DNA of 45,044 bases from Candidatus Methanovirga basalitermitum (GTDB lineage: Archaea; Methanobacteriota; Methanobacteria; Methanobacteriales; Methanobacteriaceae): NCBI GenBank assembly GCA_031284445.1, contig JAISZW010000091.1:1-45044 (forward strand). The letters run 5' to 3'. Each line of letters opens with the position of its first letter. Positions within the stretch are counted from its first letter, which is position 1. Of the stretch, positions 1-22,488 are shown piece after piece. Under the pieces are notes generated by a model, which ran no database searches, was not told where the DNA came from, and saw only the letters and a list, made by a program, of their open reading frames with translations. The position numbers and the translations under genes were made by a program.

Positions 1-1
1 T

Positions 2-571
2 ATGTCTACTGAAGTAATAATCACATTCGACACAGGATACCCAGAAAACCTCATACAACTAAAAGAATGGAACCTAACCAGCACAAGCATTACAGGGGAT
101 GGTTGGTGGGATACATTAAAAGAAACCCACATGTACCTTGATAAATCACGGGAACAATATAGTTTGATTGTTAGTAATGAGACACTCAGCATCTATCACA
201 CATTATTCCCAGCAGATAATGCAACCTATTACCTGAACCAACCACAAGGACAATTAGATTACCAAGACAGTCTTTATCGTTTGACTTATACTGGGCAATT
301 ATTATTCATACTTGTAGGTGATGAGGATGGTAACCTATTACCATCTGAGACCACACATATAACTTTTGATGACCCGTTTACAGTCCCTGATATTATAATC
401 CCTGATACTCCTATTCATAGATTAAATATTACGGATACGGGTATTGTTCCTGATCATGATATAGTAATAACTGTATCGGGTGATGATTATGAGGATAAGA
501 CTGTGCTTTACACTACACCAAGTAGTGAGGATTTTTATGTTTGTGATTTAGTAAAACTAACAAAAAAATAG
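2..571 (+). CDS. Provirus virion-module protein, function unknown
   Basis: A 189-aa ORF, co-oriented and tightly packed with the downstream structural genes. No motif recognised. Confidence 0.45.
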   Translation: MSTEVIITFDTGYPENLIQLKEWNLTSTSITGDGWWDTLKETHMYLDKSREQYSLIVSNETLSIYHTLFPADNATYYLNQPQGQLDYQDSLYRLTYTGQLLFILVGDEDGNLLPSETTHITFDDPFTVPDIIIPDTPIHRLNITDTGIVPDHDIVITVSGDDYEDKTVLYTTPSSEDFYVCDLVKLTKK

Positions 572-594
572 TAGTAGTGGAGGATTGATACATA

Positions 595-1803
595 ATGGTT
601 AACCCATACTTAACACGTTGTAGTAACGTGCCAGACTTAACAGAATTCTACATAAATAAAGATACAGGAGAAGATGATCCTACTTATGGTACGAGTATAG
701 ATACTCCATGGAGGACATTACAATATGCTCTGGAACAATTGAATACTTATGGTGAAGGATTAGGGATGGAATCCATATACATTCGCATAGCACCTCAGAC
801 TGACCCAGAACTCAACACTCAAATCATAGATAATTTCCGAACATCACACACAACCATATTCGGAAACGGATGCCAATTAAACTACACACCAACATCTGAG
901 GCAACTAACCGTGGTAGTTTACTCATGGACACCGTATTGCGAAACTGCGTACTCTGCGATGATTTCAACTTCCAAGGTGGTCGTATTGTGCTAATTGACT
1001 GCGATATAAGAGTAACACAAAGCTTCGATGACTTATTATTAACATTATACGGAGGGAATGAACTTATAGGACCTAATAAATTCAACATATCATCTGGACA
1101 AGCCATACACGCACATAACAGCATCATAACTGACGGTGATAACACAGAATATAATTTCCTGCCAAATGATGCTCCTCGCCCAACATATAAACCAATCGAC
1201 AACAATAACACAACCTACACTAAAGCTGGAAACCAATCAGGTAACTGGGATGAGCCTAATGGTGAGTATTGGGGTGTTACAGATCCAGGGATGGCATTAG
1301 GAAAATATAGGATGGGGGTATATGAACAAGGGACTGCAGGTCAGGTACTCGGATATATACAAAATGGTACAACTGCAGTTGCTAAAGATGTTTTCGAAGC
1401 ATTGAAAAACGAGACATACAATTTAAATAATAATCGAATTGAGTTTGTAGGGCCTGATACTAATAGAGGTTCCTTAGCAGTCACCATTTATTTAACTCGT
1501 TTAGGTGATCGTATTGTGACTGCGAATTTCGGTGATGATTGGCATTTCTGGGGTGGTACAGGTGACTGGTTCACGAGTCATATTACTTTCACCAGTACTT
1601 CTGCGATAATTCCTAGTGGTTGGAGACCATCACGTAAATGTATGGCATTGATACATGGTGGGGATGCTGGTCTGACGAGTGTTGGTGCGCATTGCACAAT
1701 AAATACTAATGGTACAATAAGTATCCATACTATGGATAAGTTTAGTAATCAGGATGCTATCTGGATTCCTAATATGAGCTGGCTCACCTCCATAATTGAA
1801 TAG
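595..1803 (+). CDS. Putative receptor-binding / tail-spike-like protein (beta-helix type)
   Basis: GGAGG at 579-583 lies upstream of the ATG. The N-terminal 'YINKDTGEDDPTYGTSIDTPWRTLQYAL' resembles the N-terminal signature of pectin-lyase-fold (DUF1565-like) beta-helix proteins, recalled from memory. It sits beside other large fibre-like genes. Confidence 0.4.
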   Translation: MVNPYLTRCSNVPDLTEFYINKDTGEDDPTYGTSIDTPWRTLQYALEQLNTYGEGLGMESIYIRIAPQTDPELNTQIIDNFRTSHTTIFGNGCQLNYTPTSEATNRGSLLMDTVLRNCVLCDDFNFQGGRIVLIDCDIRVTQSFDDLLLTLYGGNELIGPNKFNISSGQAIHAHNSIITDGDNTEYNFLPNDAPRPTYKPIDNNNTTYTKAGNQSGNWDEPNGEYWGVTDPGMALGKYRMGVYEQGTAGQVLGYIQNGTTAVAKDVFEALKNETYNLNNNRIEFVGPDTNRGSLAVTIYLTRLGDRIVTANFGDDWHFWGGTGDWFTSHITFTSTSAIIPSGWRPSRKCMALIHGGDAGLTSVGAHCTINTNGTISIHTMDKFSNQDAIWIPNMSWLTSIIE

Positions 1804-1873
1804 CTTTTTGTGTGATGTTGGGGTGTATGGTATTTTCTAATACTGCCTATAATAATCTTTGATTTTTAGGTAG

Positions 1874-4600
1874 ATGAATTTTTTAACAAAAAAAAGGTTA
1901 TATTTTACTAAGGGTTTATTTTTTATGGTTCAGTTTAAAGTTTTAATCACATGCACTTGTCCAATAAGTGACTTCATCCAAATTAGTGATATTGACACCA
2001 CTCTCTCTTTTGATGGAGTAGAGAATGGTAGTATTACTTGTAGTATTTATAGTAGTACGATTGAGTTAACCCCAGGTGAATATAGTTTAACTGACAGTCA
2101 AGGAATCATCAGATCCACCCAAATAATAGTTACAAGTGATACAGAATTAATACGTGTTGGATTAAAACAACAAACACTACCCTTAAACATCCAATTCAAG
2201 GGCACTACTGTTTTTGATCCTGATTATGAAAACTCCACTATCTGCGCAAAGGTGACATGTCCAAGTACTGGGAAAGTAATAACTAATGAGATAATTTTAT
2301 TAACATTAACACAAGCCACCTATAAACCCTATATATCACTTCCTAATTTAGATTCAGGGATCTATGAATTATATGCACATCATCCAGACAGCACCATCAT
2401 TGATAATGTGACGATCACTGATAATCCTTTACTCCTTGACTTCAGCAATCCTCCCTCACCAGTATTTGATTTTGGAGTGGAACCAGTCACACGAACAATA
2501 CATAAAACTATCACAACTAACATCACACTACTAAACCTCCAGTTAACAGCAGGCAAATGCCCAATCAGCAAAACCATCCCCACCACAGATATTGAATATG
2601 ATGCCTATAACGGTACAACTAAAATCATACCAGACCCCAACCAACATGAATTCAACTGTACTGAAAACCTCGTATATCTTTTATTCAAAGAATCATACAT
2701 CACTACTGATTTCAACACCACAGGGACAAGTGGAAGCAACCTCCAAAACTACAGTAAAGGAGACACCATAGCTTTTGTTGAAGCACCAGACATAGATAAT
2801 CATATCCTCATCACCTTAAATATCTTAATCAATGAAACCACAGTTTGGGATCCTGAAATAGAGAGTATCGAGATAATAAAAGATTACAGTTGCAGAATGA
2901 ATGGTCCAACTAAACCAGAAACACAAATCATCACACAAAAGAATTATAAAGGAATAATAAAACTCAACGACCTATATGGAGGATTATATAAAGGATACTA
3001 CAACATACAAGTCTACATTAACACAAACACTAGAAGAATATTCATCGATGCAATCAATAATAACAGTATTTACCTGGAAGACAGGGAACATATCACCCAT
3101 GATTATAACCAACTCATGTATATTGAGACCAGTAACTTCACAGGCAATATGATTAATTGTGAATTATCCCTACCATACAATAGTTTCAATCGTCGTCTTA
3201 TCGGTGAATACAGTAAGGATAACCCATCTTATAACCTACTATTGAACTCTCCAAATGAGAGTTCAGGAGTGAATGTTTTTGATTCTCATCGTTACATGAT
3301 GCAACTAAGTGATAATAAAGATGACAAATACGAAGATGAGAACATAATCTTCATTTTATACCCTCCACAACTAAGCAAACCATTATGTGATGAAGGCAAA
3401 ACACTAATCACAGATTTATTGGATATTTTTGATTTGAAACCAGATACCAGTTATAATCTGCAGATGAAAGTGGATAGCAGTTCACATAACAGCTATTACC
3501 AATTAGTTATACGATTCTACACGAAAAATAGTGATGATGGTTTTGATGAGTATTTTACTAGTAGTAGTAGGTATTTTAATAGTGATCATGACACTATAGT
3601 GAATCTCCTATTTAAAACACCAAGTAAGGTATTACAGGACACTCATTATACGATTTATCTCATGAGGATACAAAGTAGTGATGGTAAACCCTCACGTAGA
3701 GGTGAAGTATGGGAGATACGTAATATTGACTTAAGAGAAGGTGTGATACCAGAATACACCCACAACTGCAATCGTCCTGATAACTGCCCCTTCTTCACAC
3801 TCGACGGAATAGACTCAAACCAAATCACCAACGACAATAGTTTCAAATTAGACCGACCAACTGGTGAGCTGATAAGTAATCTGAACAGCATAGAGTTCAA
3901 ATCCAATAGTGTGGATGGACGGGTGATAACAAACAACACCTATGAACCAGTCCAGATCACATTACCAGTAATATTAACACCAGGTAAAAATAATCGTTGT
4001 CTACAGGAACAATTCACCTTACTTGATAATATTATCAGTTACTTCCTACTAAACCCACGTTTAAATGGTAAGATCCGTGAAAGACAACTAAAACTCAACT
4101 ACAATGAAAATTACTATGATGTGGTTCTAACTGGAGATATCACACCACAAATAGATGATAAAGATAACCGCACATTAACCATGGATTTAGAGTTCACAGT
4201 TAACAGTGGACGAGGATACAAATCATACAAAACACTAAAATACGGAGAAGTGGATAATTTAACACCAGGTTATGCTGTGAATCCTGTACTGCAATTCCAT
4301 ACTAATATGTTCATGAAGAAGGGTGATGTCTTAAACATAGTCATTACTGATCGTATGAGTAATACTCAATGCCTCATCTACGGGTATTTGCTAACTAAGG
4401 ACATAAAAACAGATAATAGTAGTATGATTGTTGATATGGAGAAAAGAACCGTCTACTTTAACTGTGAAAATATCACAAAGGATATTCCTATTAAATTGGG
4501 TTGGTTGCGATTAGAAGGAAGTTACGACCTCCATATGAATCTCGTGGATGATAAAGTGAGTGATATGAATGTTTATGGACGGGAGGTGTTTAATTTATGA
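1874..4600 (+). CDS. Large virion protein, fibre/adhesin-like (function unknown)
   Basis: A 908-aa uninterrupted ORF, Thr/Asn/Ile/Asp-rich, with no NTPase motif. Its stop overlaps the next start (ATGA at 4597-4600). The real start may be the internal ATG at 1926 (MVQFKV...). Confidence 0.5.
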   Translation: MNFLTKKRLYFTKGLFFMVQFKVLITCTCPISDFIQISDIDTTLSFDGVENGSITCSIYSSTIELTPGEYSLTDSQGIIRSTQIIVTSDTELIRVGLKQQTLPLNIQFKGTTVFDPDYENSTICAKVTCPSTGKVITNEIILLTLTQATYKPYISLPNLDSGIYELYAHHPDSTIIDNVTITDNPLLLDFSNPPSPVFDFGVEPVTRTIHKTITTNITLLNLQLTAGKCPISKTIPTTDIEYDAYNGTTKIIPDPNQHEFNCTENLVYLLFKESYITTDFNTTGTSGSNLQNYSKGDTIAFVEAPDIDNHILITLNILINETTVWDPEIESIEIIKDYSCRMNGPTKPETQIITQKNYKGIIKLNDLYGGLYKGYYNIQVYINTNTRRIFIDAINNNSIYLEDREHITHDYNQLMYIETSNFTGNMINCELSLPYNSFNRRLIGEYSKDNPSYNLLLNSPNESSGVNVFDSHRYMMQLSDNKDDKYEDENIIFILYPPQLSKPLCDEGKTLITDLLDIFDLKPDTSYNLQMKVDSSSHNSYYQLVIRFYTKNSDDGFDEYFTSSSRYFNSDHDTIVNLLFKTPSKVLQDTHYTIYLMRIQSSDGKPSRRGEVWEIRNIDLREGVIPEYTHNCNRPDNCPFFTLDGIDSNQITNDNSFKLDRPTGELISNLNSIEFKSNSVDGRVITNNTYEPVQITLPVILTPGKNNRCLQEQFTLLDNIISYFLLNPRLNGKIRERQLKLNYNENYYDVVLTGDITPQIDDKDNRTLTMDLEFTVNSGRGYKSYKTLKYGEVDNLTPGYAVNPVLQFHTNMFMKKGDVLNIVITDRMSNTQCLIYGYLLTKDIKTDNSSMIVDMEKRTVYFNCENITKDIPIKLGWLRLEGSYDLHMNLVDDKVSDMNVYGREVFNL

Positions 4601-6735
4601 TTAGCATGTTCCTATTAAAATTATTACTACGTAACACTTATCTAGGTAATGAAGAAGACAGCCGATACCAGTATAAGTCACCTATAGTGGAGAACTGGGC
4701 AAACCACCAACTACCACTATTACAAACCCTCGATGATAACCCACCTCATTACCAGCATGATTACCAGTCTGGTAATACAAGTGATGCTCAAAAGTACAGA
4801 CTAGAGGAAGCGAAGGATCATTGGAACCAATACCTCTTTATCAAGGATTATATGAACCTGGAGGGAGAACAATTAATAGGAGTTGATTACTTCAACCTCC
4901 TATTAAATGCATACACTACATACTATCATGCCATTGACTCCTATATGCCTGAGAACCTCTTTAGTGATACTGACCCACTCGTAGTTAAATATAAGGGGAT
5001 GCTTAAGGATTTAACACTCCAAAAACTCTACTCTGGTCTGATAAAACAAAGCACCATAATAAACACCGATTACCAGCATGAAATACTAACTGATTGGAAT
5101 ACCGATACAACAGGAAGTATTGGTTTCAATGTATTCAACATCACAGATGCGAGTAAAACCCGTTTATATGATTGGTTAAGAGACATAGTGGATAATAATA
5201 GTAAAAGTAGTTTCGATAGATATACCGCATACTTACTACGTGTTATGAAACAATTCATCAAAGGAGAGAACCTATTCAATTATGTTAACCAAGAAACACC
5301 AATCCAGACTCCAGGCGGAGGATACAGTTACCGTACAAGTTACAAAGAGTTCCCAGATATTGATCAGTATATTACTGATAAGAAAGGCACAATAATCCTC
5401 TATAATCAATATATGAGACTAATAGGAGTACTCAACAACAAAGACGACCTCTACACACTTACTGAACATAACAGCTTAAAAGACCGCTACATAGAAATAC
5501 GAATCAAAAAAAACGAAACCATCAACAACGGACTAATACAAACAGGAAACTACATCATACAAACAGAATCAGCCGAAGGCACACCCGAACGATACCTAAT
5601 AATAAAAACAGAAAACACCGAAACAACAGACGATAGTGACACAATCCACATAACAGCAGTCCATACCCAACAAGAAATATACAAACAAAACACAGGTGAA
5701 ATCGTATGGAACCAAAATCAGGCTACAGTATCCTTGGCCGATTCTTTTAATCATATTGCAGAATTCATACCACCACACTCACAGACATTACCAACACCAC
5801 CCACAAATGACACAACAGGCTGGTACTACACATTAAAAAAATACATTGACTGGATAGCTGAAAACCGTGGATGGGAATACCAATACCGTTTAATCAACCC
5901 ATTCAATGGTGATAGGCGAGAACAACTCGTATTTAATAAGCGTAATGGTAAACGAATACCCTACATCTTCACAACCCGTGATATACGTAACATGAAAATA
6001 ATAGAAAACATTGAAGATAAAAGAACCAAAGACCGACGGAACACGTCATCTCGTAACCAAACAATATGGTTAGAGACAGGAATAAATCGAGGTGACCGAT
6101 TCCCCAAAGCATCCAAGGATGACAGTCCAGAAACCAGTCAAGTCTGGAAAAGAGGAACCTCATGGTATGGTGGGTCACGTTACGGGGTAAATACCTATGG
6201 GATAGGTGATGTAACCAGCTTTAAACCATTAGGAAGACCGAAGATGCAGGGTTTACCAGACTACAACTACGCATACAACACCACAGTAGTGCAACGACAA
6301 GATCCCGAATACGTGACAGGACAAGAAGACATCTACAAACGAGATAATGAATCCAATGAAGATTACAACTATAGAGTTGGTAGTTTCCAAGCAAACAGCC
6401 TGAAAGCTGGTCAAGATTACCTACTAGATAAAATAAATAATGCTGATGACATACTACAAATAGAACTAAGTTTAGATGGCTACTACACAGACTATGATAA
6501 CCTATCAGTGAACGTATTTGACTCAATCATCATGGAGTACCTACCAGGCAGATATATTATAGCTCGTGTCACAGAAACAGTTAAATCCTATGATGATATA
6601 TCCAATTGCAGTATACGTATTGGTACAAGTCCAGCCAGCATGCTAGCAGATCGGGATGTGCGTAACCAGTACATGGAAAACATAGAAGTCATCGACGTAT
6701 CAGAACTAATACACTACGTGGACGTGGGAACATGA
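4597..6735 (+). CDS. Large virion protein; possible portal (assigned by position only)
   Basis: A 712-aa ORF translationally coupled at both ends (ATGA overlaps). It sits immediately upstream of the MuF/gp7-like gene, the usual portal position. No portal motif recognised by eye. Confidence 0.3.
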   Translation: MISMFLLKLLLRNTYLGNEEDSRYQYKSPIVENWANHQLPLLQTLDDNPPHYQHDYQSGNTSDAQKYRLEEAKDHWNQYLFIKDYMNLEGEQLIGVDYFNLLLNAYTTYYHAIDSYMPENLFSDTDPLVVKYKGMLKDLTLQKLYSGLIKQSTIINTDYQHEILTDWNTDTTGSIGFNVFNITDASKTRLYDWLRDIVDNNSKSSFDRYTAYLLRVMKQFIKGENLFNYVNQETPIQTPGGGYSYRTSYKEFPDIDQYITDKKGTIILYNQYMRLIGVLNNKDDLYTLTEHNSLKDRYIEIRIKKNETINNGLIQTGNYIIQTESAEGTPERYLIIKTENTETTDDSDTIHITAVHTQQEIYKQNTGEIVWNQNQATVSLADSFNHIAEFIPPHSQTLPTPPTNDTTGWYYTLKKYIDWIAENRGWEYQYRLINPFNGDRREQLVFNKRNGKRIPYIFTTRDIRNMKIIENIEDKRTKDRRNTSSRNQTIWLETGINRGDRFPKASKDDSPETSQVWKRGTSWYGGSRYGVNTYGIGDVTSFKPLGRPKMQGLPDYNYAYNTTVVQRQDPEYVTGQEDIYKRDNESNEDYNYRVGSFQANSLKAGQDYLLDKINNADDILQIELSLDGYYTDYDNLSVNVFDSIIMEYLPGRYIIARVTETVKSYDDISNCSIRIGTSPASMLADRDVRNQYMENIEVIDVSELIHYVDVGT

Positions 6736-7421
6736 ACAATTTTAATACTGAACTAAGAAGCATCACAGAAGATATCATCCGCGAAACATTAACCTACGGA
6801 TACATCAACAAGACCAGTATCCATTACCAACTAGTCACCATCTACAATAAATACTATGGGACAAATCCTGGAGTGATAAACTTACTAAACCTATATGAGG
6901 AAAACCTACTAATAAACCTGGAAGTATTATTAGATTTAAATGAAGAAATAAATGATTATACAGGAGAAGACCAAGATCACTTAGTCGCATTATCGTGGGA
7001 TGACTTACAGAAAATACTAACAACCGCAGGCATGATTGGCTTATTAGATGATTATAATGGAGTGACTGATTATCGAGACTTAACAAATAACATCCTTAAC
7101 ATTGGTAGAAGTTTGGAAATTAGTGAAGATTATGATGAAATCGCCACATTCATAACCATGAATTATCCTGATGAGGAGGTTTATAAGAGTTGGCAGGCTA
7201 ACCCACCAGACCCAAACACAAGCAGACATTTAGATACTATGGATGGTATCAGTATACCATTCGATGACATTTTTGAAGTTGTTAACTCACAGACTGGTGA
7301 ATCCAGTATGATGAGATTTCCGAAAGATCCTGATAGTGATGATATAGGTAATATAGCTAATTGTTACTGCTCATTAAATGTGCATTATCCTGACGGCACC
7401 GACACCAACACAGGATTGTGA
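6732..7421 (+). CDS. Phage head morphogenesis protein, Mu F / SPP1 gp7-like
   Basis: The C-terminal 'SRHLDTMDGISIPFDDIF...FPKDPDSDDIGNIANCYCSL' matches the MuF-family pattern R..H..ldG......F....P.dP......NCRC. Confidence 0.6.
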   Translation: MNNFNTELRSITEDIIRETLTYGYINKTSIHYQLVTIYNKYYGTNPGVINLLNLYEENLLINLEVLLDLNEEINDYTGEDQDHLVALSWDDLQKILTTAGMIGLLDDYNGVTDYRDLTNNILNIGRSLEISEDYDEIATFITMNYPDEEVYKSWQANPPDPNTSRHLDTMDGISIPFDDIFEVVNSQTGESSMMRFPKDPDSDDIGNIANCYCSLNVHYPDGTDTNTGL

Positions 7422-14939: not shown

Positions 14940-15230
14940 ATGAAGAAATTAAATAATAAAAGAAATTTAAATTCTGATTTTAAAATTGATGATCATAATG
15001 ATCTTCAAAAAGAAAAAGAAATAATCATCAACGATAAAATATATACTGTTGTTGATGTGCATAGACTCCTCCAAATCGAGGACAAATATAAAAAACTTAT
15101 CCTTAAAATTTATGATATATTCCATTTAGGGGAATTAGAAGACCCAGTAATGGAGAATATTATAAACGAGATCCAACCTGATCGTCCTATTCCTGCAAGC
15201 CAAATCTTCAACTTCGAAGAGGTGATCTAA
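14940..15230 (+). CDS. Early-operon protein, unknown function
   Basis: A 96-aa ORF with AGGAG 9 nt upstream, first gene after the switch region. Confidence 0.5.
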   Translation: MKKLNNKRNLNSDFKIDDHNDLQKEKEIIINDKIYTVVDVHRLLQIEDKYKKLILKIYDIFHLGELEDPVMENIINEIQPDRPIPASQIFNFEEVI

Positions 15231-15231
15231 A

Positions 15232-15423
15232 ATGATAGATCACATAGATTCTTTTCTTCGTTCTGATATATATATTTTAGCATCCGATGGTGAAATCCGT
15301 GATTCCAGTTATCTCCTTGATTATGAGTTAGCTGAGATTCTTGAATCATTATTCCCAGATGATTCTGCTGTTTTACGCAGAGATGAAAGTATAGCAGCAG
15401 CTGTAACGGAGGATGCTTTATGA
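15232..15423 (+). CDS. Small acidic early protein, unknown function
   Basis: A 63-aa ORF starting 1 nt after the previous stop. Its stop overlaps the next start (ATGA at 15420). Confidence 0.4.
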   Translation: MIDHIDSFLRSDIYILASDGEIRDSSYLLDYELAEILESLFPDDSAVLRRDESIAAAVTEDAL

Positions 15424-16130
15424 ACACCTCCACTAATCCTAATGTTCCTTTAATTGAACTACTTGAAGATCCCCAATCAGACAGAGATACTCATACAATA
15501 CCAAGAGTAATCCATATAAACAAAGAAGATTGGGAGAAAATCCTGAATCAAGAAAAAATTGTCAATTACAATACCATTTATGTTTGCGTTGAAGCTAGAG
15601 ATTGGGTAATGAGTCCAATTTCATTAGCATATTTGTTTAACTTACAGAGTAAGACCGTATATAATAAAATAAGTAAGTATTATGACAATATGGATAAATG
15701 GATGATAGAAAAGCGGAGTCTAAATATTAGACTTCGTAATTTAAGAGACGAAGTGAGAGTCTCTCGTGGAGTGAACCGTGAACTAACCTTCTTCATAGCT
15801 TACAACACCGATTCAAAAGTTTCAATGAATATACAAGAGTTTGCAAATCACATTATAGAAAATTACATCTACAAAAAAACAGATGAACTATCAGGCAAGC
15901 AAACAATCCTTAACTTACCACAAATGAAGTTAAAAGCACCCAACCTTAAAAAAGAAACATTACAACAAATACAAAATGAAGTTTTAAATTATAAGAAGGA
16001 TCTATATCCTAAAACAGGTAAGGCATGGACAACTAAAGAAGAATGGGAAGTTGTTACCATGCTGAAAGAAGATGTGGTCTTGGATGAGATAGCTAATTAT
16101 CTTGATCGGTCTGTAAAAAGCAGTAGTTGA
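15420..16130 (+). CDS. DNA-binding early protein with two HTH-like segments; the C-terminus appears frameshifted
   Basis: 'ISLAYLFNLQSKTVYNKISKY' and 'WTTKEEWEVVTMLKEDVVLDEIANYLDRSVK' look like HTH regions. Removing one A from the A5 run 16115-16119 continues the second as ...RSVKAVVERINKHKLKSLAEEQYTLFNYPKKEK* (stop at 16207-16209). Confidence 0.55.
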   Translation: MNTSTNPNVPLIELLEDPQSDRDTHTIPRVIHINKEDWEKILNQEKIVNYNTIYVCVEARDWVMSPISLAYLFNLQSKTVYNKISKYYDNMDKWMIEKRSLNIRLRNLRDEVRVSRGVNRELTFFIAYNTDSKVSMNIQEFANHIIENYIYKKTDELSGKQTILNLPQMKLKAPNLKKETLQQIQNEVLNYKKDLYPKTGKAWTTKEEWEVVTMLKEDVVLDEIANYLDRSVKSSS

Positions 16131-16416: not shown

Positions 16417-16539
16417 ATGTTAAAACAATTACTAAAACCATTAATAGACTTTGAAAGAAGACAGAAGAATAATAAGAACCTAAAGAAAGGAGAACAATCT
16501 CCACTCTTCTTGTTCTTCCGAAACGAAAGGAGGCAATGA
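16417..16539 (+). CDS. Small basic protein (39 aa), translationally coupled to the next gene
   Basis: Its stop overlaps the ATG of the 16536 gene (ATGA). No function recognised. Confidence 0.3.
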   Translation: MLKQLLKPLIDFERRQKNNKNLKKGEQSPLFLFFRNERRQ

Positions 16540-17414
16540 AAAAAATGAATGAAATAATAACCCAAACTGAAAATAATACAATAACAACCACTAACGAGGA
16601 AAATACAATAGATAAGGGGAGAGTGGATGTAGAATACGCTATCCAACAATGGAAAGCATACCAAACACTCACACAACGTTTACTTGATGAATCTGACTAC
16701 CAAGACATAAAAGGTAAACGATTCAAGAAGAAATCGGCTTGGAGGAAACTCTGCAAAGCATTCAACCTCTCCACCACAATAATTGATCGTGAAATCATGA
16801 AAGATGATAAAGGAAGAGTGAATGAGGCAACATTCATCGTACGGGCTACTGAACCTAGTGGTCGTTATGTGGAAGCGTATGGTTCATGTAGTCGTCGTGA
16901 GCATCAATGGGGTAGACCGAATCATGATGTGCCATCAACAGCACAAACCAGAGCAACTAATCGTGCTATAAGTGACTTGATTGGTGCAGGGGAGGTTACA
17001 GCTGAAGAAATGAAGAGTAATAATGATTCATCTTCTTCTTCTTCTTCTTATACAACTTACACGACAAAAAGTAAAAACCCTAAACCAGTTGAAAATACAG
17101 AGAATGATATACCATCAAGCAGGGCAAATGATGATGAAAAGAAAGATGATACAAATACTACAAAGGCTGATCAAGGAAATATGAAACATGTTGATACTGA
17201 CCCTGATCCAATAGGTTTTGATGAGAATAGCATGAAGCTAATCCTCCAGGATAAAGTGTTGACTGAAGCATTAAACCGCCTTGAATCCAGATCAGATACT
17301 GTTGATAAGCGGAATATGGTGGAAGAAATAGTAGCATTACTTGGCGAAGAAGCAGTCACACCTGAAGAATGTGCTGAATCCAAAAAGATCATATTAGGGT
17401 TAAATTATGAATGA
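16536..17414 (+). CDS. Putative Rad52/Sak-like single-strand annealing protein
   Basis: 'NEATFIVRATEPSGRYVEAYGSCS' and 'AQTRATNRAISDLIGAGE' resemble the Rad52-fold beta-hairpin and A.TdA.KRA...fGnalG motifs. A poly-Ser linker and acidic C-terminal tail follow. It lies upstream of the ori and replicase genes. Confidence 0.4.
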   Translation: MKKMNEIITQTENNTITTTNEENTIDKGRVDVEYAIQQWKAYQTLTQRLLDESDYQDIKGKRFKKKSAWRKLCKAFNLSTTIIDREIMKDDKGRVNEATFIVRATEPSGRYVEAYGSCSRREHQWGRPNHDVPSTAQTRATNRAISDLIGAGEVTAEEMKSNNDSSSSSSSYTTYTTKSKNPKPVENTENDIPSSRANDDEKKDDTNTTKADQGNMKHVDTDPDPIGFDENSMKLILQDKVLTEALNRLESRSDTVDKRNMVEEIVALLGEEAVTPEECAESKKIILGLNYE

Positions 17415-17439: not shown

Positions 17440-17690
17440 TGATGAAAAAAACTTGGAAGTTTTTAGACACTTTTTACCCAAGGTCTTAAAAAACTATGAA
17501 GTTTTTAGACACTTTTTTTTAGATTTTTTTTTATGATGGAGATGAGAGGAAATTAGAATCTAAGAACTGTTTAGAGTTTTTCACATGAAGGTCTTAAAAA
17601 ACTTGGAAGTTTTTAGACACTTTTAACCCAAGGTCTTAAAAAACTTCCAAGTTTTTAGACACTTTTTTTTTTATGATGGAGGAATGAAAA
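17440..17690. repeat. Iteron array / putative provirus replication origin
   Basis: Four 24-nt units ACTTGGAAGTTTTTAGACACTTTT (with variants) sit at 17451-17474, 17493-17516, 17601-17624 and 17643-17666. Three are preceded by AAGGTCTTAAAAA. The whole ~100-bp block is duplicated, including TTTTTTTTATGATGGAG. Confidence 0.65.
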
Positions 17691-17693: not shown

Positions 17694-18848
17694 ATGTTCT
17701 ACAAAAACACAAAAATGATAGAAATAAGCACAAAAATAGCTGACAGTTGGATAAAAAAAGACAACAGATATAAAACACTATACAACAAAATCATCAACAA
17801 CCAAAACTACATAACTAAGATAGGAATCACCACACAACAAATACGAGAAATACTCGGATCTCAATGGCAACAAAAACTATTAAAAACAGAATACAATGTA
17901 TGTGAAGATTTACTACTATCACTAAACCCAGAAAATACATATCTAATAGGAATAAGAGAACCCAAAAATGATAAATACTCAAAATTATTCAACACAAAAC
18001 TCTACCATGACAACTTAGAAAACAAAATAAGGAAAAACCCAGAACTATTAACAATAAACAGTTTATACTGGGTACCGCAAACACGAATAAAAAAAATATA
18101 CACGCCTAATATTGATATTGAGGATAATGCAATCACCAGGTTCCATGACCACGATAATTTCGTATCCTACTTAAGCTACGATTTTGACCAAGAATACAAA
18201 ACCTGCGTAAACCATGAAGGATTAATAGTAGGATTACGAACCAACAGCATCGGATTCAAGGAAGACGGATACAACAGAGCAAAATTCAAGAAAATAATAA
18301 TGGATGAAATGAAAAACATCCCCTACATCCTACTATATAGTAATAGTGGTATACATCTACTCATACCCTTCTTCAAAAATAGAGATGAATATGGTTTAAA
18401 AGACACTAAGCTATTCGCAAACTACAAACTACATCTCATACCCCCAGAATTAAGACGCTATGCTGATAAATCACAACTCAAAACAAACACCTTACGAGTA
18501 CCAGGACTCCCAGGATTCAATGGTAAAAAACCAAGCAGGATAATGCACATCAACTATGGAGACCATGAAAAATATAATCAACATATACATGAATTAGAGG
18601 AACTATTATTTAAAATTCAACACCAGGATTTGAAAATTGATAAAAAAGAAAACCTCATAGACCATGTTACCATAGCATACGATTATGGGGACCGTGTCAC
18701 ATGCAAATGCCCTGTACATCAACCAGACACTAAACCTTCAGCTTATATCTTCAAAAATAAATCCTGGCTATTGCATTGCAGCACATGCAACACATCATAC
18801 ACCATAAACAATGATGGTGAATGGATAGAAAAAAAAGGATGGAGGTAA
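17694..18848 (+). CDS. Archaeo-eukaryotic primase superfamily prim-pol with a C-terminal CHC2-like zinc finger
   Basis: AEP motif I is LSYDFD, motif II is SNSGIHLLI, and motif III region is ADKS...LRVPGLPGFNGKK. The C-terminus has CKCPVHQPDTKPSAY...HCSTC. Confidence 0.65.
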   Translation: MFYKNTKMIEISTKIADSWIKKDNRYKTLYNKIINNQNYITKIGITTQQIREILGSQWQQKLLKTEYNVCEDLLLSLNPENTYLIGIREPKNDKYSKLFNTKLYHDNLENKIRKNPELLTINSLYWVPQTRIKKIYTPNIDIEDNAITRFHDHDNFVSYLSYDFDQEYKTCVNHEGLIVGLRTNSIGFKEDGYNRAKFKKIIMDEMKNIPYILLYSNSGIHLLIPFFKNRDEYGLKDTKLFANYKLHLIPPELRRYADKSQLKTNTLRVPGLPGFNGKKPSRIMHINYGDHEKYNQHIHELEELLFKIQHQDLKIDKKENLIDHVTIAYDYGDRVTCKCPVHQPDTKPSAYIFKNKSWLLHCSTCNTSYTINNDGEWIEKKGWR

Positions 18849-18857: not shown

Positions 18858-20558
18858 ATGTACGAATTCACCACCACCACTACTAAAGAACAGGACACCA
18901 TAAAACATAAACATGATGAAAAGTATGATGATAATAAGAATGATCTTGTTGGAGAATATAGTGACACCACCCTCCAACAACACCAAACAAGAAAAAAGGG
19001 GTTTTATCATCATCCGAAACTCGAAATAAAGAAAAACGGGTACCACTTCACCCAAAAAATAATAATATACGAAAATAGGGAAGATAAAACAAAAAACCTG
19101 AACCTAAATGCGATAAAAAGAGAAATAATAAAAGTATTAAAACATAATAATATAGTCACACTAAACCAAAAAATTTACAAGAAACAAGAAACCCCAAATC
19201 CTAAAATAGAAGGCTTACACTTACTCCAATTAGATGAACTATCACGAGCACTAATAAACTACTGTGAAACAATAGAAGAAGCCTGGGATGTAGATGAAGA
19301 AAAAGTAAAAGCATGGATAATAGGATCAACAACCAAAATCTATAAAAGATGGGAAGACATAGGCTTCAACAACGGAATACTAAAATACAGAAACCGAGAA
19401 TGGGGATTTAAAAAAATAAGTGAAATAAATAAAAACAAATTAATCCCACGACAACACTACAACCAAACATACGAGTACATGGATTTATCTGATTATGATT
19501 TTATAAACTCAAACCTTGAATTATTTAAATTAATCATTACAAGTACAGATACAGAAGAAAAAGGACTGCAAAACTGCAAAAATTTAGCATATGCTATAGG
19601 CTATTTGCTAATAGGTAATAATACGCAAGAAGAAATAATAATAGTCCTACAAGGAGCACCAGGCAGCGGTAAAACAACAATAACCAATATCATAGGAGAT
19701 TTAGTCAATGGAGACATTGGAGAATACGCTGATAGTAATAGTGACAGTAAATACAACAGCATAATCGGGAACGAAATAGCATTATTCCAGGAACTAGATA
19801 ATAACGTACTCAGTAAGATAAACAGCACACTAAAAAAAATTAGTGGAGGTGAAAACTTAACATACAACCTTCTATACCAAAATACGAAGCCTGTTTTAGT
19901 GAAACAAGAAACACCGAAGATATTAATCGTAACTAACCACAATTTAAGCTTTGATGAAGCAATGCTAAGCAGAACAATCCCCATCACATTCACCATAAAC
20001 CATCGATCCAGTGAAAACAGTCCTAAAATCCCTTTCTATGAAAAGATCATCTTAGAACAGAAAACAGACATAATCAACCTATGCATAAACTACTACCTCC
20101 AAAACAAGACAATAGACCATCTACACAAAAAAACACAACCGTTCAACAAACCAGACTGGGTAAACGAAAACTACACTATAACATACAATATAAATGAAGA
20201 AGGAGAATCACTCGAAGCATTCAAAGACAGAATAAAAAGAGTATGGGACACATACACGCACAATCCAATAAAACAAAACGAATACGAGAAGTTAGAACCA
20301 TTATCCTTCCCCAGCTTCTTCCAACGCCTACTCAAGGATATGAGTTACGATGATGCGAGTTTAACATATTTAAACGAACATGCACGTCGGTATTGTTTAG
20401 AAAACGATTATCCATATGATCGAGATCTCACACTCAGAACTTTAAAAGGCAAACATTACTTCAACAACCACAAACTCAACATAATAAGATTAGATTTCTA
20501 TATAAAAACCAAACATTACCATTTAACCTTCATACCTGGTTTATGTTTAACTTTGTAA
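18858..20558 (+). CDS. Superfamily 3 replicative helicase (D5 / P4-alpha C-terminal type)
   Basis: Walker A is LQGAPGSGKTT, Walker B is IALFQELD and motif C is ILIVTNHN. It lies directly after the prim-pol. Confidence 0.75.
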   Translation: MYEFTTTTTKEQDTIKHKHDEKYDDNKNDLVGEYSDTTLQQHQTRKKGFYHHPKLEIKKNGYHFTQKIIIYENREDKTKNLNLNAIKREIIKVLKHNNIVTLNQKIYKKQETPNPKIEGLHLLQLDELSRALINYCETIEEAWDVDEEKVKAWIIGSTTKIYKRWEDIGFNNGILKYRNREWGFKKISEINKNKLIPRQHYNQTYEYMDLSDYDFINSNLELFKLIITSTDTEEKGLQNCKNLAYAIGYLLIGNNTQEEIIIVLQGAPGSGKTTITNIIGDLVNGDIGEYADSNSDSKYNSIIGNEIALFQELDNNVLSKINSTLKKISGGENLTYNLLYQNTKPVLVKQETPKILIVTNHNLSFDEAMLSRTIPITFTINHRSSENSPKIPFYEKIILEQKTDIINLCINYYLQNKTIDHLHKKTQPFNKPDWVNENYTITYNINEEGESLEAFKDRIKRVWDTYTHNPIKQNEYEKLEPLSFPSFFQRLLKDMSYDDASLTYLNEHARRYCLENDYPYDRDLTLRTLKGKHYFNNHKLNIIRLDFYIKTKHYHLTFIPGLCLTL

Positions 20559-20907
20559 AATCCACCCAAGTTTGAAAAACCACTTTTTTTTATTTATTTT
20601 TTAATGAAAAGCAAACAAGTATATACTTAAACATTTAAGTACAATGAAAGCTTATTGAAAAATCCACCCAAGTTTGCGATTATTGCTCTCCAGAACTTTT
20701 ATATCATTTTTTGGTTTGTTTTTTTATCCACTTATCATATATCTACATTCATCAATATCTCCTTCTTTTCCTTATCCAAGGACGCTAAGGCATTCCCATG
20801 TACTCCTACATACAAGGTAAAAAGTGTAAAAAAACTATGAAGTTTTTTGACACTTTAGTGTATATGAGACTTTCCAAATGATGATTTTCCCAAACTTGGG
20901 TGGATTT
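20557..20907. repeat. Three copies of the 17-nt AAATCCACCCAAGTTTG (two direct, one inverted) plus a fifth iteron-like copy
   Basis: The 17-mers are at 20558-20574, 20660-20676 and, inverted, 20891-20907. The iteron-like ACTATGAAGTTTTTTGACACTTT is at 20833-20855. All lie between the helicase stop and the integrase stop. Confidence 0.7.
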
Positions 20908-20990
20908 CGATGAGTGTCTATATATCGATGAAAAAACATGATGCTGGAAAAGTAAATACTAATGAAAAAAGATCAGAACCTCCAAAAAAT

Positions 20991-22166
20991 TTATTTTTCC
21001 TTCAAACCTAAATTAACCAACTCTTCCTTCAACAAATCCTTTAAATCCTGTCTTAAACTATACATTCCATCCTCTAAGTCTTTAATCTTCTTATCCTTCA
21101 AACTTAACGCATCATGAAATTCATCTTTCAATTTCTTAACTTCCGCACTATCCAAATTAGTAACAACAGTCTTATAAATCGTTAACCGTGGTAAATACTC
21201 TAAATACTTCTCTTTTATACGTATCGGATTGTTTTTAAAATAAGTCTCCGTTATAGTATCAGCTTTACGACCCTGAATAGTATTAGCAAAACTTATATCC
21301 TCTATAGTGGTTGCGTTGAATTTACGGAGGTTGTGAGGACGGAAGAAACTATATTTATTAACTTTACCCCAACCCAACTTATCGTTAAGTCTTGCGAACA
21401 ATTTATTCATCCCAACATTCTTTATATTGAATAAAAAGTCAGATGGTTTAAGTTTTTCCCTTGTTCGTAAATATTTAACAATCATCGTTGTTGCTTCATA
21501 ACTGCAACAAGTGTAATATGGATAATCTGTTTTAATTCTCACTAATTCGAATAATGGTACAACATCATCTTGCTTACCTATCTCATTTAAACAATCATCT
21601 ATGTTATTTGTTTTATGATATTCATTAGTTGCAGTTATGAAGTCACTAACATGTATATGTAATGTCTCATTTACAGCTGTTCCACTACTGCTCATGAATA
21701 AAATTAAAGATTTCAGTAATAAATTGTTTGTTGCTTCTAAAGCCTGTTGTATATGTTCAATTGTGGGTATGTCATGGTATCGTTCATGATGATCTTCTCT
21801 TAATTGGACTGGTGGCATGTAAGGGATTTCAATCTCAAAATGACGGTAAAAACTTTTGATCTTTGTGAAATATTCTTTTATAGTGCTTGTACCATAATTC
21901 TTATCTTGTATGAGGTGTTGTCTGTAATGTTTCAGTCTTTTGTTTATTTGTCTGTTCTTTGCTCTTATTCTTTCTTCTTCTTCACAGTCCGCTTCACTTA
22001 TTAAAGCTGATAAACTTTTATTATTTATTTTAACATAAATTTTCAATGCATCAACATAAGTTTTGATTGTTTTCTGTGCGAGATTTCTCTCAGCAATGAA
22101 TTCTTGAAATTTATGATCGTTCATTATTTTTTTTCTTTCATTATTTTTTATAGTTTTTTTTGTCAT
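20991..22166 (-). CDS. int: Tyrosine recombinase / phage integrase
   Basis: The N-terminus is SAM-like (FQEFIAERNLAQKTIKTYVDAL). Box II is RPHNLRKFNATT...QGRKADTITETY (H-x-x-R and catalytic Y). It holds the terminal position in the provirus. Confidence 0.8.
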   Translation of the reverse strand: MTKKTIKNNERKKIMNDHKFQEFIAERNLAQKTIKTYVDALKIYVKINNKSLSALISEADCEEEERIRAKNRQINKRLKHYRQHLIQDKNYGTSTIKEYFTKIKSFYRHFEIEIPYMPPVQLREDHHERYHDIPTIEHIQQALEATNNLLLKSLILFMSSSGTAVNETLHIHVSDFITATNEYHKTNNIDDCLNEIGKQDDVVPLFELVRIKTDYPYYTCCSYEATTMIVKYLRTREKLKPSDFLFNIKNVGMNKLFARLNDKLGWGKVNKYSFFRPHNLRKFNATTIEDISFANTIQGRKADTITETYFKNNPIRIKEKYLEYLPRLTIYKTVVTNLDSAEVKKLKDEFHDALSLKDKKIKDLEDGMYSLRQDLKDLLKEELVNLGLKEK

Positions 22167-22488
22167 GTTTAATTATTTTTTTTAATATTATATATACTAA
22201 CTTATACTAAGTTATATAACCTTCAGTAAAAAAGCAAATAAAACAAGAAAAGCCAGGAAGACAAACCTAAAAATACAAGACCGAGTAATACACAAACTAC
22301 TAAAGATTAATAAAAAAATAGAAAAAATCAAGTTAGCAGAAATCTTCATCAATTTTTTCATCTATAGAAATCGAAAAGTTTAAGTATGAATTAGAACAAA
22401 TATTATTAATAATAGCTAACCTTGCTTATTTTTTTATCATGAAATAATTTATAAATAAATTATCATATGTTTGATAGAGATGTAAAAT

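Follow-up and report, generated by a model that had tools for sequence, protein, structure and literature searches.

Positions 1 to 22,232 of the window, the 45,044 nt of one whole contig (C90), form the right arm of a tailed, siphovirus-like provirus that is integrated in a Candidatus Methanovirga MAG. The whole element measures at least 36.8 kb (roughly 37 kb), running from position 9528 to position 1 of contig C81, through a repeat, R, of at least 5.07 kb and then through window 1–22232. Taken together, the account given here is in our judgement very probable: one integrated virus, laid out as C81, R and the window, inserted by att-mediated recombination, and belonging to the temperate head-tailed viruses (Caudoviricetes) with a long non-contractile tail, with the termite-gut methanogen Candidatus Methanovirga sp. 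as host. An earlier note, made on the window sequence, had proposed a provirus with siphovirus-like hallmarks, and a gp10/Neck1 protein, a tape-measure-like protein, an SF3 helicase, an integrase and a Rad52 fold do lie in one block. Of the extent it gave, 1–22300, the right end stands (22232); on the left the provirus runs off the contig start, so that its left border is outside the window, and the 22 kb seen here are only about 60% of the element. The left arm on C81 carries TerS, TerL (phrog_2, 1.1e-37), a Mu-type portal (Portal_Mu, 3.6e-26), a protease/scaffold-like gene, a capsid candidate (AF2 model with a pLDDT of only 34) and a tube candidate. The large genes are all open (1209, 908, 712, 581, 566, 445, 437 and 391 aa), the best TerL identity across 300 family genomes is at most 39%, and most proteins looked up were singletons in a collection of 15 billion proteins.

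The two arms meet in the repeat, the end of which opens the window:

1..119 (no strand): end of collapsed repeat R, missing from the MAG bin, joining the window to the left arm on C81

C81 ends in R and the window starts in it, and a Logan contig of 5311 nt covers window 1–119 and extends leftwards at a depth of 23.2, as against 12.4 for the provirus. C81 and C280, the latter a second element in the same MAG, have identical 119-nt ends, which are the overlap of an assembler at k=119; the virus–host junctions are read through in the k=119 contigs of both arms, C81 and the window. A second assembler gives 1860–12266 and 12284–20000 without any difference (in a comparison over window 1–20000). 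As R is unseen, it is the att motifs and synteny, not a spanning read, that support the join of C81, R and the window; in the 2.06-Mb MAG, the 14/17-mer and 20-mer motifs described below occur only at about 9.46–9.51 kb of C81 and at 22.14–22.21 kb of the window.

The late genes fill the first 12 kb of the window. Several could be read against a sister provirus, G001:C178, in the MAG of the congener Ca. Methanovirga aequatorialis (G001, a MAG whose contig L032 matches JAITEE010000186.1):

2..571 (+): p189, late protein whose start lies within the repeat overlap; no family match in profile searches
595..1803 (+): p402, probable tail fibre or receptor-binding protein; homologue in the same position at G001:C178 8387–9628
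1839..1895 (no strand): short intergenic element with copies at four intergenic sites of the host; may be a promoter or leader before p908
1874..4600 (+): p908, large tail protein, possibly distal-tail or baseplate; 28% identity to a 795-aa ORF of G001:C178 (1.6e-11)
4597..6735 (+): p712, large tail protein; homologue at G001:C178 12066–14042 (24% identical across 653 aa, 1.3e-16)
6732..7421 (+): p229, with a candidate MuF-like (head morphogenesis) C-terminal domain; phrog_2468, 2.8e-4
7428..7805 (+): HK97-gp10-like tail-completion/Neck1 protein; PF04883 22.3 bits (cut-off 21.4), phrog_5 3.8e-21
7855..8352 (+): p165, neck or tail-terminator-like by position; 34% identity to the ORF after the gp10-like gene of provirus G027
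8356..11985 (+): tape-measure-like protein, 1209 aa, last gene of the late operon; phrog_167 4.1e-14, phrog_1272 6.3e-10

Its position suggests the fibre role of p402, whose only profile match is phrog_9468, of unknown function, at 1.3e-4. Copies of the short intergenic element, 89–98% identical, lie on C173, C110, C141 and C131, and Logan contigs branch at 1851 and 1884. The true start of p908 is probably the ATG at 1925, giving 891 aa, a form present in NCBI/Logan; the protein has no Pfam, PHROG or PDB match. The start of p712 overlaps the p908 stop by 4 nt, and apart from its G001:C178 homologue p712 found only itself among 5.8 billion clusters. The MuF-like call for p229 is a tentative one: the gene is located away from the usual place after the portal, and it has 36% identity to the MuF-like ORF that does follow the portal in G001:C178, which itself matches phrog_2468 at 2.4e-8. 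Against Pfam TMP_3 the tape-measure-like protein scores 34.6 bits, below the cut-off of 41; its homologue at G001:C178 14043–16844 matches phrog_58 (TMP) at 2.5e-14 and comes directly after the p712 homologue. Since the tape-measure-last order thus recurs in the sister provirus, it is not decay.

Between the late genes and the replication genes lies a control region with small genes on both strands:

12020..12379 (−): p119, coiled-coil protein anchored in the membrane at its C terminus; paralogues in the host by tblastn
12530..12810 (no strand): conserved non-coding block, likely regulatory, common to C280 (71% identity over 268 nt)
12780..13960 (+): run of small frames with frame changes and stops in three-frame translation, probable pseudogenes
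13965..14396 (+): p143, small multi-pass membrane protein by ORF and sequence, with only a weak DUF3278 match
14546..14755 (−): AbrB/MazE-like candidate repressor, 69 aa, in the divergent early control region; MazE_antitoxin E 0.074
14940..16130 (+): early genes p96, p63 and p236, called as ORFs; a C280 ORF matches p63 at 50% identity

The relatives of p119 found by tblastn lie at window 32829–33131 (35%), on C82 (53%) and on C111 (46%), with a counterpart in C280. Similarity of the non-coding block to C280 is alike in all frames, and the block matches no Rfam family. The broken frames at 12780–13960 are not assembly errors of this contig, because an independent Logan contig is identical there. 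A score of 13.5 bits against the MazE_antitoxin cut-off of 24.7 gives only a hint of an AbrB protein; a 33% identical counterpart occupies the same position in C280.

The replication module and the integrase complete the right arm:

16536..17414 (+): Rad52-like single-strand annealing protein, by AF2 model and Foldseek; N-terminal domain at about residues 30–150
17445..17674 (no strand): four iteron-like repeats of about 24–38 nt (families D1 and D2), directly upstream of the primase gene; candidate origin
17694..18848 (+): primase-like protein with a zinc finger of CHC2 type at the C terminus, by ESM-atlas feature score and phrog_47
18858..20558 (+): SF3 (D5/E1-type) replicative helicase; phrog_1829 4.1e-14, phrog_1156 7.2e-12
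20828..20865 (no strand): fifth iteron copy (families D2 and I3)
20991..22166 (−): tyrosine integrase, 391 aa; Phage_int_SAM_4 31.9 bits (cut-off 27), 1.8e-7

The predicted Rad52 fold is confirmed at the level of the model (pLDDT 73.3), for which the top Foldseek matches were human RAD52 (probability 1.00, E 1.8e-4, TM about 0.45) and Mgm101. The primase-like protein, without a Pfam or PDB sequence match, scores 0.96 in the ESM atlas to clusters of CHC2-zinc-finger primases (Zn_ribbon_DnaG) and 0.94 to AEP-TOTE/RepB_primase clusters; its residues 332–371 match phrog_47 (DNA primase) at 8.4e-4, and an AEP-type catalytic domain is likely, with YDFD, SGIH and RVPG as motifs visible in the sequence. 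The helicase reaches 25.8 bits against PPV_E1_C (cut-off 26.5). The integrase is 53–59% identical to those of congeners, and its K212, H278, R281 and Y309 do not vary among 32 homologues. Among the genes named earlier, then, gp10, tape measure, SF3, Rad52 and integrase are borne out, whereas MuF, AbrB and AEP are weakly supported, the last two being leads.

The right border of the provirus lies near the integrase gene, where the earlier note had placed a junction within 22167–22488:

22144..22163 (no strand): 20-nt motif TTTTTTATAGTTTTTTTTGT, candidate arm-type site; direct copy at C81 9469–9488
22194..22221 (no strand): left arm of an imperfect inverted repeat of 28 nt that may bind the integrase as a core-type site; partner at C81 9490–9517
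22222..22232 (no strand): attR core and right provirus end, an 11-bp direct repeat TTCAGTAAAAA; attL copy at C81 9518–9528
22489..23738 (both strands): host flank with HATPase_c_2 (anti-sigma-like, +; PF13581 9e-14) and nucS (−; NucS_C 3.3e-44, NucS_N 3.2e-36)

The right border, at 22222–22232, falls inside that range, and the direct repeat that had been expected beyond the window is the copy on C81. In the MAG, TTTTTTATAGTTTTTTTTGT is present at these two border places only, and the 17-mer TACTAACTTATACTAAG is likewise unique to the two borders. The inverted alignment of the 28-nt arms scores 40, a value reached by none of 300 shuffles; aligned directly, too, the two border regions outscore all 300. 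Both arms abut the 11-bp core exactly, and the rebuilt attP has the 28-nt inverted repeat on both sides of it. The core itself is not unique: the MAG contains 15 copies, and chance would give the border regions about 1.6 11-mers in common. What marks it out is its place between the inverted-repeat arms, together with a contig end. That end belongs to a Logan contig from the provirus interior, which starts at 12284 and, by extrapolation over its 9949 nt, would end at 22232, the last core base. A stop there hints at an excised form, because attR and attP would diverge at this point in a k=31 graph.

The insertion site is the AT-rich purC/HATPase_c_2 intergenic region, between two housekeeping genes, of which purC is on C81 and the HATPase_c_2 gene in the window. 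As had been proposed, the junction is intergenic beside the anti-sigma-like gene and nucS, 256 nt upstream of HATPase_c_2, which is convergent with nucS; the NucS protein is 87–91% identical to those of Ca. Methanovirga species. The absence of a tRNA at this junction was also upheld, ARAGORN and Rfam finding none in the window or C81. An att in AT-rich intergenic DNA is known from psiM100 and one of 11 bp from Msmi-Pro1 (PMC8371274). For the comparison with a relative lacking the element, the congener G002 has purC and the HATPase homologue directly adjacent and co-oriented; this empty-site synteny is from one congener only, whose HATPase gene, at 55% identity, could be a paralogue. An old fixed remnant, with the same block in relatives, host-like composition and no repeat borders, had been named as the contrary case, and none of its three parts holds.

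In the mechanism that we propose, the integrase would have recombined attP, made up of the 11-bp core, the 28-nt inverted core sites and the 20-nt direct motifs on both arms, with attB in the purC/HATPase_c_2 intergenic region, leaving the core duplicated at both provirus ends. The modules run from head and packaging (C81) to a tail ending in the tape-measure-like gene, a divergent control region with the AbrB-like gene, the Rad52-like protein, iterons, primase, SF3 helicase and, at the right end, the tyrosine integrase. Replication would start at the iterons with the element's own primase and helicase. The element can probably still excise.

It might instead be a defective, grounded provirus, integrated as described and unable to complete its cycle, a cryptic remnant whose lysin was lost or never present, whose accessory genes have eroded and whose integrase is crippled at the Arg-I-equivalent position; we hold this possible but rather unlikely. 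The broken frames, seen in both assemblies, speak for it, as does the failure to find a pseudomurein endoisopeptidase (Pei-type endolysin) or other lysin in the MAG, a search of little weight because its Pfam control also matched nothing anywhere; the lysin could be novel or lie inside R. At integrase position 165 a Val stands in place of the K or R seen in 28 homologue rows out of 32, but three natural homologues have neither residue there (M, M and N; one further Val row is an alignment-register artefact). That no relative appeared in phage, IMG/VR and JGI metagenome contig collections, queried with the tape-measure protein or DNA, would fit a virus that no longer circulates. Against this stand the open large genes, the intact att core and arm motifs, a GC3 that is not ameliorated and the contig break at the core edge, with its hint of attP.

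Two further readings concern how the parts belong together. The block 6732–11985 (MuF-like, gp10-like, p165 and tape measure) could be the deleted remnant of a second, canonical siphovirus, recombined or in tandem with a virus of head, tube and large tail proteins whose true tape-measure gene is in R. The canonical G027 and vir075 do place MuF after the portal and gp10/p165 between capsid and tube, with the TMP following the tube and chaperones, whereas here these genes sit behind the tail-tip genes; R is located exactly where a canonical TMP would be, and its sharing with the related C280 shows recombination between elements. We nonetheless regard such a composite as distinctly improbable: G001:C178 has the same TMP placement with the capsid beside the tube, the tight packing of the block (a 4-nt overlap at 6732–6735, gaps of 3–49 nt) is unlikely after several independent deletions, and with no other neck genes on C81 the block supplies functions that the virus needs. 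There is very little chance that the window provirus continues left into C280 and that C81 is a different element. C81 and C280 do enter R at the same nucleotide, with no R-spanning read seen; yet C280 has its own integrase (59% identical) and early region, so that the join would give two integrases and two early modules, and the unique 14/17-mer and 20-mer, like the purC/HATPase synteny, tie C81 rather than C280 to the window.

The preferred reading, a single integrated virus, can be set beside known viruses of methanogens. The Methanobrevibacter gottschalkii virus vir075 (BK068243.1, unclassified Caudoviricetes; 37,066 bp) is of similar size and shares the temperate layout, with a tyrosine integrase (32% identical), TerS, TerL (34.5%) and portal, a Rad52-like protein (49%), a long tape measure and a tail protein of about 900 aa; it was the only methanogen virus among the matches listed in a TerL search of the phage collection. 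It differs in showing no detectable similarity in capsid, tube, tape-measure, large tail and neck proteins, in its canonical order (MuF after the portal, TMP before the distal tail protein, where the provirus has the TMP last), in its integrase at the opposite end of the early genes, and in its PeiR endolysin, where the provirus has no recognisable lysin. Homologues of p402, p908 and p712, of the tape measure and tube p581 and of the MuF domain were detected only in the sister G001:C178; p402, p908, p712 and TMP are contiguous in the same order there, and capsid and tube are adjacent. Its identities are only 24–36%, however, its MuF follows the portal, its TerL is on the other strand, its integrase is 37% identical, its insertion site differs, and no homologue of gp10 or p165 was detected in it. 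Two integrated proviruses of siphovirus type from Methanobacteriales, psiM100 (Methanothermobacter wolfeii) and Msmi-Pro1 (Methanobrevibacter smithii), were compared through phage-database searches, which gave only vir075-level relatives. The provirus has in common with them tyrosine-integrase-mediated insertion outside tRNA genes, though for Msmi-Pro1 the site is inside a coding gene. MSTV1 (Methanobrevibacter smithii tailed virus 1), also temperate and of siphovirus type, has a gut methanogen as host, in which it is integrated and sporadically excised (PMC11375127). It has been isolated and imaged; the phage-collection searches, by megablast of window 1–12000 and with the tape-measure and capsid-candidate proteins, gave no match.

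The compositional contrast with the host is real and also synonymous. In 1-kb steps, GC is 35–43% over 1–12000, 26–38% over 12–22 kb and 20–35% (mostly 23–30%) in the flank; pooled over coding sequence, the late genes have 37.7% and the host genes 29.3%, which makes the 40% versus 27% counted by hand earlier roughly right. GC3 is about 0.28–0.31 in the provirus (late 0.313, early 0.295) and 0.183 in the flank, the host value being 0.176±0.027 over 526 genome ORFs (99th percentile 0.253). It is likewise raised in the second element of the same MAG (0.25–0.36) and in G001:C178, whose mean of 0.30 is above its host (0.15–0.30 in G001 ORFs sampled outside C178, most 0.20–0.27). As related elements are similarly high, this is a virus-lineage trait and no proof of recency. 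Of the earlier description, a recent or compositionally distinct integrant, the second half therefore stands and the first is not shown, and the 1.2 kb of broken small genes make a very fresh arrival less plausible. The provirus is real and very divergent, yet of a kind already known from related methanogens, and its high GC3 and tape-measure-last order look like traits of the Methanovirga virus lineage, marks of neither recency nor decay.

The block is a genuine, well-delimited and very divergent provirus of a known kind, tailed proviruses of Methanobacteriales having already been catalogued in hundreds. Its earlier recognition as a provirus with the hallmarks of head-tailed dsDNA viruses (Caudoviricetes) was confirmed by TerL, a portal, gp10/Neck1, a tape-measure-like protein (TMP) and att borders. 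The window is one whole contig of a MAG of 282 contigs (2.06 Mb, 85% complete, 27.9% GC), and the first 22,232 nt of it are the right arm of the provirus; the left arm was found on a second contig of the same MAG, C81, as follows.

C81, reverse strand: left arm, above 35% GC, with TerS, TerL, a Mu-type portal, a 471-aa protease/scaffold-like gene, a 343-aa capsid candidate and a 581-aa protein (p581)
C81 7520-8857, reverse strand: TerL (Terminase_3 9.2e-10, 38.8 bits vs 23.2; phrog_2 1.1e-37)
C81 6199-7512, reverse strand: portal (Portal_Mu 3.6e-26, 92.8 bits vs 23.9; phrog_113 5.5e-22)
C81 2737-3768, reverse strand: capsid candidate, picked by position

Three lines of evidence led us to treat C81 and the window as one element. 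Beyond the left arm C81 carries host purC and then a DegT-family gene, and in the related genome G002 purC is followed directly by a co-oriented homologue of the window's provirus-flanking HATPase_c_2 gene. Within the MAG, the 14/17-mer TACTAACTTATACTAAG and the 20-mer TTTTTTATAGTTTTTTTTGT are confined to two places, about 9.46-9.51 kb of C81 and 22.14-22.21 kb of the window, and alignments between the two border regions scored above 300 of 300 shuffles in both orientations. Finally, both contigs share a collapsed repeat, R. A 5311-nt contig of the independent Logan assembly, with a depth of 23.2 (12.4 for the provirus), spans window 1-119 and extends further left, and C81 has an identical 119-nt end, the k-mer overlap of the original assembler, in common with C280, a contig that bears a second integrase-carrying element. 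A direct abutment of C81 and the window was rejected, as their ends do not overlap and both run into the double-depth repeat. With the 5.07 kb or more of unique sequence in R, the element comes to at least 36.8 kb; exact-pattern scans with the contig ends, aimed at R, gave no match in JGI metagenome contigs or IMG/VR. At window 90-294 the Logan contigs form a small bubble, with pieces at depths of 7.5 and 19.3 between the 23.2 and 12.4 stretches, a sign that another variant of the sequence branches off just inside p189 (late proteins are named here by their length in amino acids).

The search for a direct repeat beyond the window, proposed in the earlier note, succeeded on the linked contig, and the borders are defined by two features.

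C81 9518-9528 and window 22222-22232: att core, the 11-bp direct repeat TTCAGTAAAAA, at both borders (attL and attR)
Window 22194-22221 and C81 9517-9490: 28-nt imperfect inverted repeat, 25 of 30 aligned positions identical, abutting the 11-mer

TTCAGTAAAAA is the sole sequence common to both border regions in the right order. Taken by itself the 11-mer is at chance level: it occurs 15 times in the MAG, and the border regions are expected to have about 1.6 11-mers in common. It is credible as the core because it is placed between inverted-repeat arms. The rebuilt attP consists of an inverted arm, the 11-bp core and a second inverted arm, with a direct-orientation copy of the 20-mer on each arm, and as reconstructed from the two contigs this predicted layout is that of a classical tyrosine-recombinase attP. 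Two alternative cores, the 14-mer TAACTTATACTAAG and the 20-mer that lies within the start of the integrase gene, were rejected because the 17-mer is inverted at the other border and the copies flank the 11-mer symmetrically. A region upstream of the G002 integrase that resembles attL was likewise set aside as not significant, its score being reached by 20 of 300 shuffles.

The junction lies 256 nt upstream of the HATPase_c_2 gene and the integration is therefore intergenic, in agreement with the earlier placement beside an anti-sigma-like gene. As had also been noted, there is no tRNA at the junction: ARAGORN and Rfam found neither a tRNA nor another RNA family in the window, and the Rfam matches in the window plus four high-GC contigs were only rRNA and tRNA, all outside the window. 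In a comparison with relatives, G002 offers a candidate empty site, purC being adjacent to a HATPase_c_2 homologue; in other congeners the neighbours differ or the contig stops there, and the intergenic DNA is too diverged for alignment. Both traits of the site have precedents in Methanobacteriales, the intergenic position in psiM100, whose att is AT-rich and intergenic, and the 11-bp length in the att of Msmi-Pro1 (both PMC8371274). A 9949-nt Logan contig that begins at 12284 was compared over window positions 1-20000, and its end, extrapolated from its length, falls on the final core base, 22232. This is the point from which an excised attP and attR would follow different paths in a k=31 graph, so the stop at the core edge is a hint of excision, short of proof.

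The integrase has an N-terminal SAM-like domain above the Pfam cut-off, its catalytic domain gave no match to PF00589, and 218 of the 301 Methanobacteriaceae genomes sampled have homologues. K212, H278, R281 and Y309 are invariant in 32 aligned homologues. Where the first catalytic arginine would be expected, this integrase has Val165, and the 32 rows show Lys 19 times, Arg 9, Met 2, Asn 1 and Val 1, the lone Val row being an alignment-register artefact in the most distant homologue. Several copies of this integrase family per genome are common (loci L139-L167). A distant homologue (27% identical) was seen directly downstream of nucS in Methanobrevibacter curvatus DSM 11111 (contig 105, 4151-5278), and integration may recur in the vicinity of nucS.

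Among the gene calls made from the sequence alone, those of the gp10-like protein, the tape measure, the SF3 helicase and the integrase withstood Pfam and PHROG testing, whereas the MuF-like, AbrB and AEP prim-pol calls stand as leads rather than established annotations. The gp10-like protein exceeds the cut-off of PF04883 and matches phrog_5 (3.8e-21); TMP (8356-11985) matches phrog_167 (4.1e-14), with Pfam TMP_3 under its cut-off. The MuF-like protein gave phrog_2468 at 2.8e-4, and this putative assignment gains weight from a homologue, 36% identical, in a sister provirus of Candidatus Methanovirga aequatorialis (contig G001:C178), which matches the same family at 2.4e-8. As a tail tube protein p581 is a lead only, with atlas features 0.81-0.82 to Phage_tube_2 clusters and structural TM values of 0.47/0.61-0.74. 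The capsid candidate matched nothing in Pfam, PHROG or phage databases and has three remote homologues in 1.84 billion representatives; its AF2 model, built from four sequences, had a pLDDT of 34 and is unusable for a check of the HK97 fold. The large late proteins gave no match in Pfam or PHROG even with relaxed scanning, and PDB sequence searches with p908, p712, the integrase, p292 and p384 gave nothing usable. The Pei-family pseudomurein endoisopeptidase PF12386 was not found in the MAG, a weak test given that the control genomes were blank too, and tblastn with PeiR of the Methanobrevibacter gottschalkii virus vir075 (BK068243.1) gave no lysin match; the lysin could be located in R, or be novel.

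Upstream of p908, which probably starts at the ATG at 1925, lies a 45-57-nt intergenic element (1839-1895) that is also present, 89-98% identical, in four host intergenic regions (on C173, C110, C141 and C131); no ORF starts from the ATG of the element at the host copies, so it seems to be a shared promoter or leader. The p185/p128 gene pair also has extra copies outside the provirus, on C218 (300-1433) and C217 (5938-6159), with 34-44% identity, and seems to be a mobile or recurrent cassette.

The order of the late genes departs from the canonical one. In vir075 and in the provirus of the related genome G027 the order is portal, MuF, protease, capsid, neck genes (gp10, p165-like), tube, chaperones, TMP, distal tail proteins and lysin; here, by contrast, the capsid candidate is followed immediately by the tube candidate, and then by p185/p128, R, p189, p402, p908, p712, the MuF-like and gp10-like genes, p165 and, last, TMP. 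A misassembly would not explain this, as a second assembler recovered 1860-12266 with zero differences. The last block, from the MuF-like gene through gp10-like and p165 to TMP, was also considered as the leftover of a second virus, but the sister provirus of Ca. M. aequatorialis likewise places TMP (phrog_58 2.5e-14) directly after its p712 homologue, and its tube homologue directly after the gene in the capsid position. That contig is the only place where homologues of p402, p908, p712, TMP, p581 and the MuF domain were detected. The shared order makes the TMP-last arrangement a trait of the lineage, and the present member still differs in where its MuF-like and neck genes are placed. The sister provirus (loci L060, L180 and L181) was seen at about 7.7-36 kb of its contig, has high GC3 and a tail-fibre-like 518-aa gene, and carries TerL on the opposite strand at one end.

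All of the large genes are open and the att structure is intact, which speaks for integrity; against it stand Val165, the lack of a detected Pei-type lysin and a set of small genes at 12780-13960, in which protein-like frames are broken by frame changes and stops. The Logan assembly of the same run is identical there base for base, so the breaks are present in the reads.

The replication and control genes occupy the part of the right arm nearer the integrase; the iterons there and the second element are placed as follows.

Window 17445-17674: four iteron-like repeats, directly upstream of the primase gene; a fifth at 20828-20865
C280 1-9528 (locus L067): second element, with an integrase 59% identical and AbrB-like, p63-like, p292-like and p185/p128-like genes

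The Rad52-like call had no Pfam match at the sequence level and was upheld by predicted structure. An AF2 model from an 11-sequence alignment (the N-domain plus ten homologues from other Methanobacteriaceae) reached a pLDDT of 73.3, and seven of eight Foldseek matches at E<=1e-3 were human RAD52 (probability 1.00, TM 0.36-0.46), with yeast Mgm101 matched too; the call stands because of this match in fold. The primase-like protein matched no Pfam family and no PDB sequence. In the protein atlas it lies at 0.96 to CHC2-zinc-finger primase clusters and at 0.94 to AEP-TOTE/RepB_primase clusters, and DxD-, SxH- and RxPG-like motifs were read by eye, which leaves AEP prim-pol as a candidate identity. 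The SF3 helicase, of the D5/E1 type, matches phrog_1829 (4.1e-14) and phrog_1156 (7.2e-12, the C-terminal part of D5-like primases), with PPV_E1_C at 25.8 bits against a cut-off of 26.5. The iteron region is plausible as a replication origin at which the primase and SF3 helicase encoded by the element would act.

The AbrB-like protein, which matches MazE_antitoxin at E 0.074 (13.5 bits vs 24.7) and has a conserved counterpart in C280, is a lead of the same putative kind. Its gene on the reverse strand and the rightward early genes on the forward strand form a divergent control region with the same core layout in C280, a contig that joins R at the same nucleotide as C81 and in which the early genes are inverted relative to the integrase when compared with the window provirus. 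A non-coding block of about 270 nt (window 12530-12810, L067 5650-5920) is 71% identical in all frames with several perfect boxes of 10-20 nt; it matched no Rfam family and is probably regulatory. A coiled-coil, tail-anchored protein, p119 (12020-12379, reverse strand), has host paralogues at 32832-33137 (forward strand) and on C82 and C111, and a 124-nt stretch of C82 matches the provirus copy at 95% identity.

The compositional contrast between provirus and host, which the earlier note had taken from hand counts, is real. GC per 1-kb window is 35-43% at 1-12000, 26-38% at 12-22 kb and 20-35%, mostly 23-30%, past 22.3 kb. In the late genes GC3 reaches 0.313, and in the early genes plus integrase 0.295; for the 17 host genes of the flank it is 0.183, and for 526 long ORFs elsewhere in the genome 0.176±0.027 (99th percentile 0.253). 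The contrast thus goes beyond amino-acid composition. Of the two readings offered before, a compositionally distinct integrant stood and a recent one was not supported, since raised GC3 is shared by the ORFs of C280 (0.25-0.36) and by the sister provirus, whose mean of 0.30 compares with 0.15-0.30 (most 0.20-0.27) in ORFs of its host genome sampled from other contigs. The virus-side value is equal in two hosts, which points to a property of the virus lineage rather than a sign of recency. A general rise of proviruses above host GC3 among relatives was rejected, the G027 provirus being host-like and hence an exception. Possible causes are a mutational or selective regime of the virus's own, or circulation in less AT-rich hosts.

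The flanking NucS is 87-91% identical to those of Candidatus Methanovirga australis, procula, meridionalis and aequatorialis, and Methanovirga was confirmed as the host. Methanovirga inhabits lower termites, partly within gut flagellates (PMC13135261). The DNA was found in just one public run, a termite-gut metagenome, and although two further runs of that study, X2 and X3, contain almost none of the sampled words, this does not show that the DNA is absent from them. The literature search found no report of a virus for Methanovirga or for any termite-gut methanogen. A compendium of methanogen tailed viruses by Medvedeva et al. 2023 reportedly covers vir075-like and other families, and vir075 is the best named relative (TerL 34.5%, integrase 32% and Rad52-like 49% identity); in pairwise comparison, these three proteins are the only ones that match. 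TerL has matches in 29 of 301 genomes, with at most 39% identity within 300 family genomes. In a collection of 15 billion proteins, TMP, the capsid candidate, the SF3 helicase and the integrase are the sole members of their 90%-identity clusters, and those of p908, p712 and TerL otherwise hold only alternative gene-start calls or copies from the same contigs. In wider searches p712 and the primase matched only themselves and TMP had two weak matches, which cover 16% of the protein. Against 50,697 phage records neither megablast of 1-12000 nor tblastn with TMP and the capsid candidate gave a match, and no related locus was found for p908 in genome contigs or for TMP in IMG/VR. Most of the structural proteins are without a relative among billions of public proteins.

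Possibly, although we regard the full combination as rather doubtful, the window provirus belongs, together with its sister in Ca. M. aequatorialis, to an undescribed tailed-virus lineage specific to Methanovirga, the methanogens inside termite-gut flagellates. Such a lineage would be marked by a re-ordered tail module (tube, large tail proteins and TMP last and, in this member, MuF-like and neck genes shifted to a place after the tail-tip genes), by a GC3 held about 10 points above that of its hosts and by a non-canonical integrase active site with Lys, even Val, for the first Arg, and its window member would still be excising in the gut. An att system fully delimited in core, inverted core sites and arm motifs is now at hand for an integrase family present in most of the sampled genomes, so that the recombination chemistry with Lys or Val at the first-Arg position is directly testable. 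The steady offset in GC3 between virus and host offers a small, clean case in which to ask why the composition of a virus fails to follow that of an AT-drifting, partly intracellular host.
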